Assembly (NCBI GenBank): GCA_022795675.1
Contig: JAAWHY010000001.1
Location: 1 to 33,254 of the forward strand
DNA: 33,254 nucleotides
Direction: 5' to 3'
Origin: Clostridia bacterium
Lineage (GTDB): Bacteria; Bacillota; Clostridia; TANB77; CAG-508
Below are positions 26,788 through 26,907 of this stretch, piece after piece. The notes under the pieces were generated by a model. The model saw nothing but the letters and a program-made list of their open reading frames with translations, had not been told where the DNA came from and made no database searches. A program made the position numbers and the translations under genes. Positions within the stretch are counted from its first letter, which is position 1; each line of letters opens with the position of its first letter.

Positions 26788-26907
26788 CGGACGCCCCAGT
26801 AAAATTTGCTTCGCAAATTTTCCATGCTACGCTCGCAAAAGTATAAAAAGAAGAAAATAAATTTTCTTCTTTTTGCATTTTTTCTCGCTTTCGCCGCCCC
26901 CTACATT
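26788..26907 (-). repeat. long modular REP-like element, copy G (best preserved)
   Basis: Order on the plus strand: cggacgcccc, the identical 28-nt module (26797..26824), a perfect 14-bp hairpin aaaaagaagaaaat/attttcttcttttt (26845..26874), ttttctcgctttcgccgccccctacatt. Confidence 0.8.

Follow-up and report, generated by a model that had tools for sequence, protein, structure and literature searches.

REP-like mosaic repeats of AT-rich gut Clostridia and a candidate RAYT-like Y1 transposase

The 33,254-nt DNA stretch analyzed here (the window; Clostridia bacterium, GenBank assembly GCA_022795675.1, contig JAAWHY010000001.1, positions 1 to 33,254) carries three long intergenic repeats, named E, F and G, together with short units built on the same frame. 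In our best reading, these repeats add gut Firmicutes to the hosts of selfish DNA of the repetitive extragenic palindrome (REP)/Y1-transposase kind and are not a new RNA gene. It appears fairly likely that they are dispersed non-coding mosaic repeats, similar to REPs and to bacterial interspersed mosaic elements (BIMEs), of uncultured AT-rich spore-former-type mouse-gut Clostridia, spread by a Y1 transposase similar to tyrosine transposases associated with REPs (RAYTs). To our knowledge, REPs and domesticated Y1 transposases have been described almost entirely from Proteobacteria and a few other phyla.

Architecture of the long and short elements

The three intergenic elements of ~115 nt align end to end, and the repeat finder placed them in a single family (D1). 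Each holds an exact copy of the 28-mer CAGTAAAATTTGCTTCGCAAATTTTCCA, at 13601, 19546 and 26797 of the plus strand (n=3 in the window, shuffled sequences expecting 0), which bears out the starting observation of an earlier sequence-only reading of this DNA, one 28-mer in three elements of ~115-120 nt. No fourth match to the 28-mer was detected in the window even at up to 3 mismatches. Its 21-nt core, a 9-bp stem with a 3-nt loop (the 21-mer), has a fourth window copy with 2 mismatches, AAAATTTGCTTAACAAATTTT at 24775-24795, in a solitary, slightly diverged ~30-nt hairpin module at 24771..24805 (minus strand); this is the decayed copy that had been reported near 24771.

The minus strand encodes all flanking genes, so the sequences in the sequence-only reading were given antisense; in the mRNA sense the elements open with GTAG or GTAA, and on the plus strand each terminates in ..CCCTAC. 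The mRNA-sense layout of the long elements is GTAG-GGGCG-[~100 nt]-CGTCC-G, with a basal stem GGGCG/CGTCC carrying the same G.T wobble as the short forms. Between the halves of this stem, where the apical part of the palindrome would otherwise lie, we detected (a) a short helix, GAcgaaAT/ATgagTC, (b) a long, perfect AT-rich hairpin, which sits on the covarying basal helix, (c) a linker and (d) GG-AAAATTTGC-GAA-GCAAATTTT-ACTG, the ~30-nt module of this cassette being CATGR-AAAATTTGC-GAA-GCAAATTTT-ACTG. The predicted folds contain both hairpins and the outer stem, with z-scores that vary by copy and strand between -1.4 and -6.3.

A covariance model of the long element was built from eight copies. 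Element G (26788..26904, minus strand, 119.9 bits) occupies the spacer between nrnA (DHH) and truB in the nusA-infB-rbfA-nrnA-truB operon, with its GTAG head at 26904-26901, the 5' outer stem GGGCG, a basal helix and AT hairpin with the core at 26845-26874, the 21-mer hairpin at 26801-26821 and the 3' outer stem CGTCCG, which is 26793-26788 on the plus strand. Element F (19530..19650, minus strand, 106 bits) has its GTAG head at 19650-19647, an AT/GC hairpin at 19587-19629, the 21-mer at 19550-19570 and a remnant REP palindrome, GGTGCACCATGTCACC, at 19545-19530. It begins 2 nt past the stop codon of a DUF1292 gene, with a short copy 160 nt further on, as had been noticed for this adjacent pair. 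Element E (13588..13706, minus strand, 117.7 bits), between a 280-aa open reading frame (ORF) and a T2SSE-type ATPase gene, has the head GTAA at 13706-13703, an AT-only hairpin at 13646-13680, the 21-mer at 13605-13625 and the outer stem CGGACG 13588-13593 / CGTCCG 13694-13699.

The outer ends of E and G do pair, as had been proposed; in G the real pair is GGGCG/CGTCC with a G.T wobble and not CGGACG/CGCCG. The variable hairpins had been called completely different in each copy, and this did not hold: the hairpins of E and G are homologous with compensatory substitutions (T/A to G/C), and the subtypes are kept across genomes. The view of a modular, repeated unit that conserves its structure is supported.

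The 43-nt short repeat D17 of the repeat finder occurs at 5484..5526 and 19447..19489 (both minus strand). The first consists of the short REP GTAGGGGCGCCCTTTGGGCGTCCG and the hairpin GTGGCGAAGCCAC-TTTT, the second of the short REP GTAGGGGCGACCATTGGTCGTCCG and the terminator-like hairpin GTGGCAAAGCCAC-TTTT. Read in the mRNA sense from 5525 and 19488, the units are GTAGGGGCGCCC-TTT-GGGCGTCCG and GTAGGGGCGACC-ATT-GGTCGTCCG, and both are followed by GTGGCRAAGCCAC-TTTT. The short REP GTAGGGCCGAGCATTGCTCGTCCG at 25807..25830 (minus strand), in the truB-HAD spacer, reads GTAGGGCCGAGC-ATT-GCTCGTCCG from 25830, and the variant GTAGGGGCGGGGCTTGCCTCCGCCC at 8120..8144 (minus strand) reads GTAGGGGCGGGGC-TTG-CCTCCGCCC from 8144. 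The frame GTAG-GGGCG...CGTCC-G is common to long and short forms, and orthologous sites in the related locus L139 hold the short REP only, which supports the proposal that the long form is a short REP with ~100 nt in its loop.

Published REPs have a 5' GTAG head and a GC-rich imperfect palindrome and are extragenic, located downstream of genes (PMC3733652, PMC2817692, PMC3479197). The window holds seven REP-type units in 33 kb, all on the minus strand, with a GTAG head in 6 of the 7 and GTAA in E, followed by a GC-rich palindrome. The conserved GT[AG]G foot of REPs is present, GTAG being the head of most copies in the clade as well; the short forms fit an extragenic palindrome of 20-40 nt and the long forms are above the usual size. 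A BIME arrangement proper, with alternating, regularly spaced REPs, was considered for the window and rejected, its units being unpaired and of one orientation.

Filled, short and empty sites in relatives

Comparison of orthologous spacers detected sites with long, short and absent elements at short evolutionary distance. At the nrnA-truB spacer, the long element G of the window is shared by L132 (TruB 100% identical to that of the window) and L145 (85%). L146 (82%) also has a long element, in which hairpin 2 is AAAATTTGG[..CAGTAAAATTTGCTTTGCAAATTTTTCATG..]CCAAATTTT, with a second, inverted ~30-nt module nested in the loop (fold -52.5 kcal/mol, z-score -6.1). The fully syntenic loci L139/L140 (88%) carry only a short REP, GTAGGGGCACAT-TGC-ATGTGCCC. 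L147 (76%) has a GTAG REP with an unrelated hairpin insert of ~75 nt, L135-L138 (91-92%) have no REP, and L148 from the human gut (73%) has a plain hairpin only. In metagenome runs X3, X4 and X25, which contain near-identical strains, 797 other bases replace 26766-26931, i.e., G with its immediate flanks.

Other sites gave a similar picture. After the DUF1292 gene, where the window has F, L139 has only the short REP TGTAGGGGCGCATTGCATGTGCCCCC. The truB-HAD spacer is just 23 nt long in L139 vs 127 nt with the REP in the window, so the REP site is empty in L139. The spacer around 24775 is ~95% identical in the window, L132, L145 and L139, and L139 lacks just the ~31 nt holding the hairpin. No consistent target-site duplication was found in the three comparisons of filled with short or empty sites; the outer stem acts as a short terminal inverted repeat. 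Orthologous sites differ in frame, in cassette and in 30-nt module; the three are therefore separable, and each has been gained or lost over short evolutionary scales.

As a separate observation on the truB-HAD spacer, the best sigma-70-like promoter of the region (25771-25799, minus strand, TTGAAA-17-TATAAT, 11/12) is located right downstream of the REP at 25830, in spacer sequence without a counterpart in L139.

The family is dispersed over other genomes. The covariance model detected full-length members in the window (three), L132, L135-L138 (after pgi), L021, L031, L130, L145 and L146, all of them Clostridia-clade loci, and weaker architectural variants in L073/L085/L094, L084, L007, L095, L037 and L117. 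Element E shares 95% identity with the copy of L021 and 92% with that of L031, and neither blastn nor tblastx showed similarity between the flanks of E and those of L021 and L031, so these copies occupy non-orthologous sites. A scan of JGI metagenomes with a family-specific 26-mer gave a single match, L130. When contig depths in DNA runs were summed, 26781-26891 reached 5-10 times the value of its flanks, with contig ends falling at the 28-mer.

In the clade loci, ~27 GTAG units point the same way as the genes on both sides and ~6 do not, and many begin 2-30 nt after a stop codon. Some relatives have inverted REP pairs (L065 7130/7275, L073 105/206). In rabbit-gut and other Clostridia metagenome-assembled genomes (MAGs), an 86-nt composite unit of the 21-mer hairpin and a second hairpin forms tandem arrays (L117 2512-2977, 5.4 copies at 95% identity; L116; L065 2116-2355). 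The sequence-only reading had named independence of the modules as evidence against a single modular element. The solitary hairpin, the nested hairpin, the tandem arrays and the short REPs do show such independence, but the composite also spreads as a unit.

A candidate transposase and the weighing of alternatives

Among all the loci compared, a Y1 gene was found only in L098, a mouse Clostridia MAG carrying the 21-mer, and in loci fetched through L098. The L098 gene (1501-2199, minus strand) encodes a Y1_Tnp protein (Pfam E = 1.9e-11) with a weak C-terminal helix-turn-helix (HTH), and further Y1_Tnp+HTH genes are present at L149 6001-6678, L153 6001-6681 and in L157/L159. The L098 protein and two relatives score 68-78 bits on the NCBIfam model NF047646, 'REP-associated tyrosine transposase' (REP_Tyr_transpos), with a cut-off of 80; the L098 protein has 78.3 bits on this model vs 20 bits on IS200, and the three proteins have 17-23 bits on IS200. 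The motifs NNHAH, GYVFRDRY and YIYNNP(V/I)KA are common to the three, and the L098-type family has 1147 homologues at E <= 1e-10. Each Y1 gene is single-copy and was found in many samples at one constant position between housekeeping genes, the behavior described for domesticated RAYTs (PMC6006769).

Every Y1 gene is flanked by inverted hairpins: TTGCCAA[TAGGGACGCCCC]TTTTTGGCAA in L149, GTGCCAAAA[GGGACGGGG]AATTTTGGCAC in L153 and TGCCAAA[GGGGACGGAGA]ATTTTGGCA in L098, L157 and L159. The L149 hairpin loop, TAGGGACGCCCC, is identical to the head and 5' arm of the REP GTAGGGACGCCCTTTGGGCGTCCG of L007 and L094, and the 11-mer TAGGGACGCCC occurs nowhere else among 156 loci. The sequence outside the hairpins differs between L157 and L159, so their Y1 unit is present in different contexts. 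In the mouse runs, Y1 genes were found on contigs of ~893-907 nt, with a depth of 15.2 vs 13.9 for the window in X3 and 10.1 vs ~8-9 in X18; these sizes and depths are only suggestive of repeat-flanked Y1 genes in these runs. The Y1 gene of contig P0127 is another L098-type gene and not that of the window.

We compared the elements with published REP/BIME and RAYT (TnpA_REP) systems (Nunvar 2010, PMC2817692; Ton-Hoang/Messing 2012, PMC3479197; Di Nocera 2013, PMC3733652; Quentin 2018, PMC6006769). As in REPs, multi-copy extragenic elements with a GTAG head and a GC-rich imperfect palindrome are located mostly downstream of genes, occasionally form inverted pairs and have loops of variable complexity, and a RAYT-like Y1 gene is present in related genomes. 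Unlike the described REPs, they belong to AT-rich gut Clostridia (Firmicutes and Clostridia are not mentioned in Di Nocera 2013, PMC3733652), the loop cassette has ~100 nt and two structured hairpins vs reported inner loops of up to 27 bp, and the modules can be nested or solitary. The candidate Y1 proteins have a C-terminal HTH and hairpin-type inverted flanks, as in the TIRYT/subclass 2.1 group. In published work, these HTH-bearing RAYT relatives have inverted-repeat flanks and no REPs nearby. A REP head in the flanks of an HTH-bearing RAYT-like Y1 gene would extend this picture, on the understanding that our candidates only resemble the group.

Two other resemblances had been suggested from the sequence. 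BOX elements of Streptococcus pneumoniae (boxA-boxB(n)-boxC) are likewise mosaics of short modules in variable number, intergenic, co-transcribed and of stable predicted structure. Our elements differ in the GTAG palindrome frame and in having modules inside hairpin loops vs the linear A-B-C order; compared at the level of general description, they show no apparent boxA/B/C similarity, belong to a different host and are probably not BOX elements. Similarly to palindrome-associated transposable elements (PATEs) derived from IS200/IS605 and to miniature inverted-repeat transposable elements in general, they are small, non-autonomous and hairpin-rich, have no obvious target-site duplication and probably depend on a Y1/HUH enzyme acting on single strands; unlike PATEs, they terminate in the REP stem and not in insertion-sequence ends. 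No IS200/IS605 left or right ends and no tnpB or omega-RNA remnants were identified in the elements, and the PATE derivation is not supported. A link to the IS200/IS605 (Y1/HUH) superfamily in the wider sense is plausible, given the hairpin-flanked RAYT-like Y1 genes and the one loop that equals a REP head.

The window has ~28% G+C, the GC skew of the plus strand is negative throughout and essentially all long ORFs are on the minus strand; the GTAG strand is at once the coding strand and the G-rich strand. By the usual skew rule, the G-rich strand is the leading-strand sequence and hence the lagging-strand template, which is the substrate of IS200/IS605-type Y1 enzymes, as established for IS608. 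Action of the Y1 enzyme on the lagging-strand template here is our inference from this rule. The units would spread as single-stranded DNA hairpins by means of a domesticated RAYT-like Y1 (HUH) transposase, which may recognize the hairpin together with the GTAG head, act on the lagging-strand template and leave copies just past stop codons in a single orientation. Hairpin loops would be preferred entry points for further modules. After insertion, the units would be co-transcribed within operons, where the multi-hairpin fold is possibly a barrier to 3' exonucleases or a leaky terminator, a secondary effect and not the reason for their existence. Under the REP/RAYT explanation, the RAYT-like gene of the source genome would bear flanking hairpins of the GTAGGGGCG type.

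Several points weigh against this explanation. No Y1/RAYT gene is present among the window ORFs, and the evidence for the cognate enzyme comes from other genomes; the REP-to-flank match, too, is from other genomes, L149 vs L007/L094, and the Y1 flanks of L098, L153 and L157 carry other loops. Neither a target-site duplication nor a defined cleavage site is established, and the indels are readable as gain or loss. In the window, genes, replication direction and the GTAG strand all coincide, which confounds the orientation bias. The wobble test on the folding strand is neutral (12 G.T vs 11 A.C without one invariant pair). The compensatory changes, which are also part of the case for the REP-like mosaic, and the shared orientation with genes suit a function at the RNA level just as well.

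An alternative, which we regard as possible and clearly less probable, is that the long element is mainly a functional cis-acting structured RNA, i.e., an mRNA 3'-end stabilizer, a processing site or a protein-binding module, with the fold kept by selection and the repetition reflecting recruitment and not selfish spread. The orientation of the copies along their neighbors and their starts 2-30 nt past stop codons speak for it, and so does the conservation of a multi-branch fold with tandem G.A-type mismatches in the basal helix. RNAalifold predicted 37 pairs, 11 of them with compensatory changes. In the 12-sequence model alignment, double changes occur in 15/37 pairs and 96.4% of cells pair, and in the control with partners slid by 1-3 columns double changes occur in at most 5 pairs and at most 61% of cells pair; this alignment was fitted to the model, so its counts lean towards structure, and the margin over the slid control is still large. 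Covariation was detected in the basal helix (A-U to C-G or G-C at three positions) and in hairpin 2 (TTTGC/GCAAA to TTCGC/GCGAA in L135/L137), and G.U pairs of the sense strand are conserved in the outer stem and hairpin 2. A 13.4-kb contig of the metatranscriptome X28 (93% identity) crosses G, as do contigs of X17. These are assembled contigs, from which strand, ends and processing are not readable, and they fit co-transcription of G within its operon. In L132, L145, L146 and the X28 organism, G also occupies the operon site that it has in the window.

Against an RNA function, close relatives with the same operon have an empty site or unrelated inserts, the neighboring genes are functionally unrelated, and the modules are found shuffled, nested, inverted and arrayed in tandem, which is typical of mobile DNA and not of a constrained RNA. 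The wobble pairs show no strand asymmetry beyond the invariant ones: 24 G.T vs 11 A.C were counted for the folding strand, and 12 of the 24 are a single invariant pair. The comparison with Rfam assigned no known RNA family to the elements. Rfam 15 gave no match at the gathering score in the window, and the E-value mode, run on 13.5 kb and five related loci, gave nothing relevant, only sub-threshold chance matches (e.g., snoR24 with 26 bits vs a 38-bit threshold).

It is improbable that the elements are ordinary intrinsic terminators or attenuators that seem repeated by convergence in an AT-rich genome. The canonical hairpin and T-run after short REPs, GTGGCRAAGCCAC-TTTT, are of this kind, and the 21-mer, set between an A-tract and a T-tract, is similar to a bidirectional terminator and often follows tRNA genes across phyla. 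However, 92-95% identity over ~120 nt at non-orthologous sites of different genomes is not convergence, and nested and arrayed modules do not fit. In a terminator scan of 13000-28000, only the copy at 19463-19451 passed among the element-associated hairpins, and none of those in the long elements did; G is located within the nusA-infB-truB operon and is crossed by RNA and DNA contigs alike. A CRISPR-like array, or a tRNA/tmRNA remnant or leader, is hardly credible: the regular 86-nt spacing of matches in L065, L116 and L117 recalls an array, which was rejected on account of units 95% identical throughout and the lack of unique spacers, and ARAGORN detected no tRNA or tmRNA in the window.

The 21-mer beyond the family, the window setting and significance

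The 21-mer is found far beyond the Clostridia. A scan of species-representative genomes detected at least 117 loci (L001-L117), with viral loci L118-L126 in addition, and the exact sequence AAAATTTGC-GAA/TTC-GCAAATTTT is present at 2-4 separate loci each in at least 23 unrelated MAGs. Hosts among the matches listed are Patescibacteria of the candidate phyla radiation (CPR), Saccharibacteria, Elusimicrobia/Endomicrobia, Omnitrophota, Pacearchaeota, Woesearchaeota, Clostridia, Pseudanabaena, Helicobacter, Campylobacter and a Roseibium. Copies of the 21-mer are mostly intergenic, usually cap a longer stem that is specific to the family, and often adjoin tRNA genes or fall in insertions of CPR 16S genes. 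In 854 kb of fetched loci, perfect hairpins of the same format and other sequence number 37 in total vs 127 copies of the 21-mer. Viral contigs gave 9 matches vs 3, 0, 1, 2 and 0 for five control palindromes. As 7 of the 9 matches are in one phage family, whose members have the loop flipped between them, this enrichment carries little weight. A search by flank for an empty 21-mer site in this phage family gave only one extra locus, L144, sharing too little sequence. In the literature, no paper bearing the 13-nt core was found except an unrelated one on Leptospira LexA.

Read in the mRNA sense, the 21-mer has at its tip precisely the GCGAAGC mini-hairpin. The d(GCGAAGC) mini-hairpin is extraordinarily stable as DNA (Hirao and co-workers; review PMC13037366); it is a physico-chemical motif and not a genetic element. 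The 21-mer may recur because AT-rich hairpins converge on an optimal form, because it is a shared binding site or because it is a mobile module of minimal size. Only tentatively do we suggest that the 21-nt hairpin AAAATTTGC-GAA-GCAAATTTT is an entity of its own, a tiny module inserting at hairpin tips or a recognition hairpin for a very widespread factor, which recurs unchanged in sequence across domains. If true, the long element of the window would be one local host of a pan-prokaryotic mini-element.

Pfam analysis identified the neighbors of G as a DHH/DHHA1 (NrnA-like) gene and truB in the operon nusA-L7Ae-infB-rbfA-nrnA-truB and those of F as the DUF1292 gene and a MiaB-like radical-SAM gene, and E precedes the T2SSE-type ATPase gene. 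The window is present in mouse-gut metagenome runs, its TruB homologues (93% to 60% identity) are from uncultured Clostridia, and Spo0A and SpoIIID genes are encoded on neighboring contigs.

Additional features were detected in the window. A surface/pilus-like cluster occupies 1-13527, with sortase, cohesin-, dockerin-, Big_2- and cadherin-like proteins, a T2SSE-type ATPase and paralogous small proteins with near-identical N-termini (starts 7040, 7489, 8666, 9356). A second conserved intergenic structured block, at 9356-9505 upstream of a pilin-like gene, is a long imperfect palindrome with a GTAC..GTAC tip; it resembles L021 6856-6961, L037 1106-1259 and the hairpin at L139 ~17010-17100 and has no Rfam match. 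The 0.8 kb at 16240-17065 is without an ORF of 80 aa or more, has sub-threshold Rfam hits only and includes a strong bidirectional terminator-like hairpin at 16982-17010. A 77-nt direct repeat (28261-28337 / 28379-28455, 83% identity) is a duplication of the infB 3' end into the infB-rbfA spacer, where the close strain L132 lacks ~50 nt and has overlapping infB and rbfA ORFs.

Taken together with the reading preferred here, of REP-like mosaics spread by a RAYT-like Y1 enzyme, these results describe a GTAG-REP family in AT-rich gut Clostridia, in which REP loops probably serve as docking sites for further structured modules, with hairpins nested in loops at up to three levels. If it is not the product of convergence, the pan-phylum 21-mer would represent a minimal mobile or recognition element of a new kind. 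The repeats break short-read assemblies of gut MAGs and are usable as strain-level markers, and those inside core operons (nusA-infB-truB) could alter mRNA stability.

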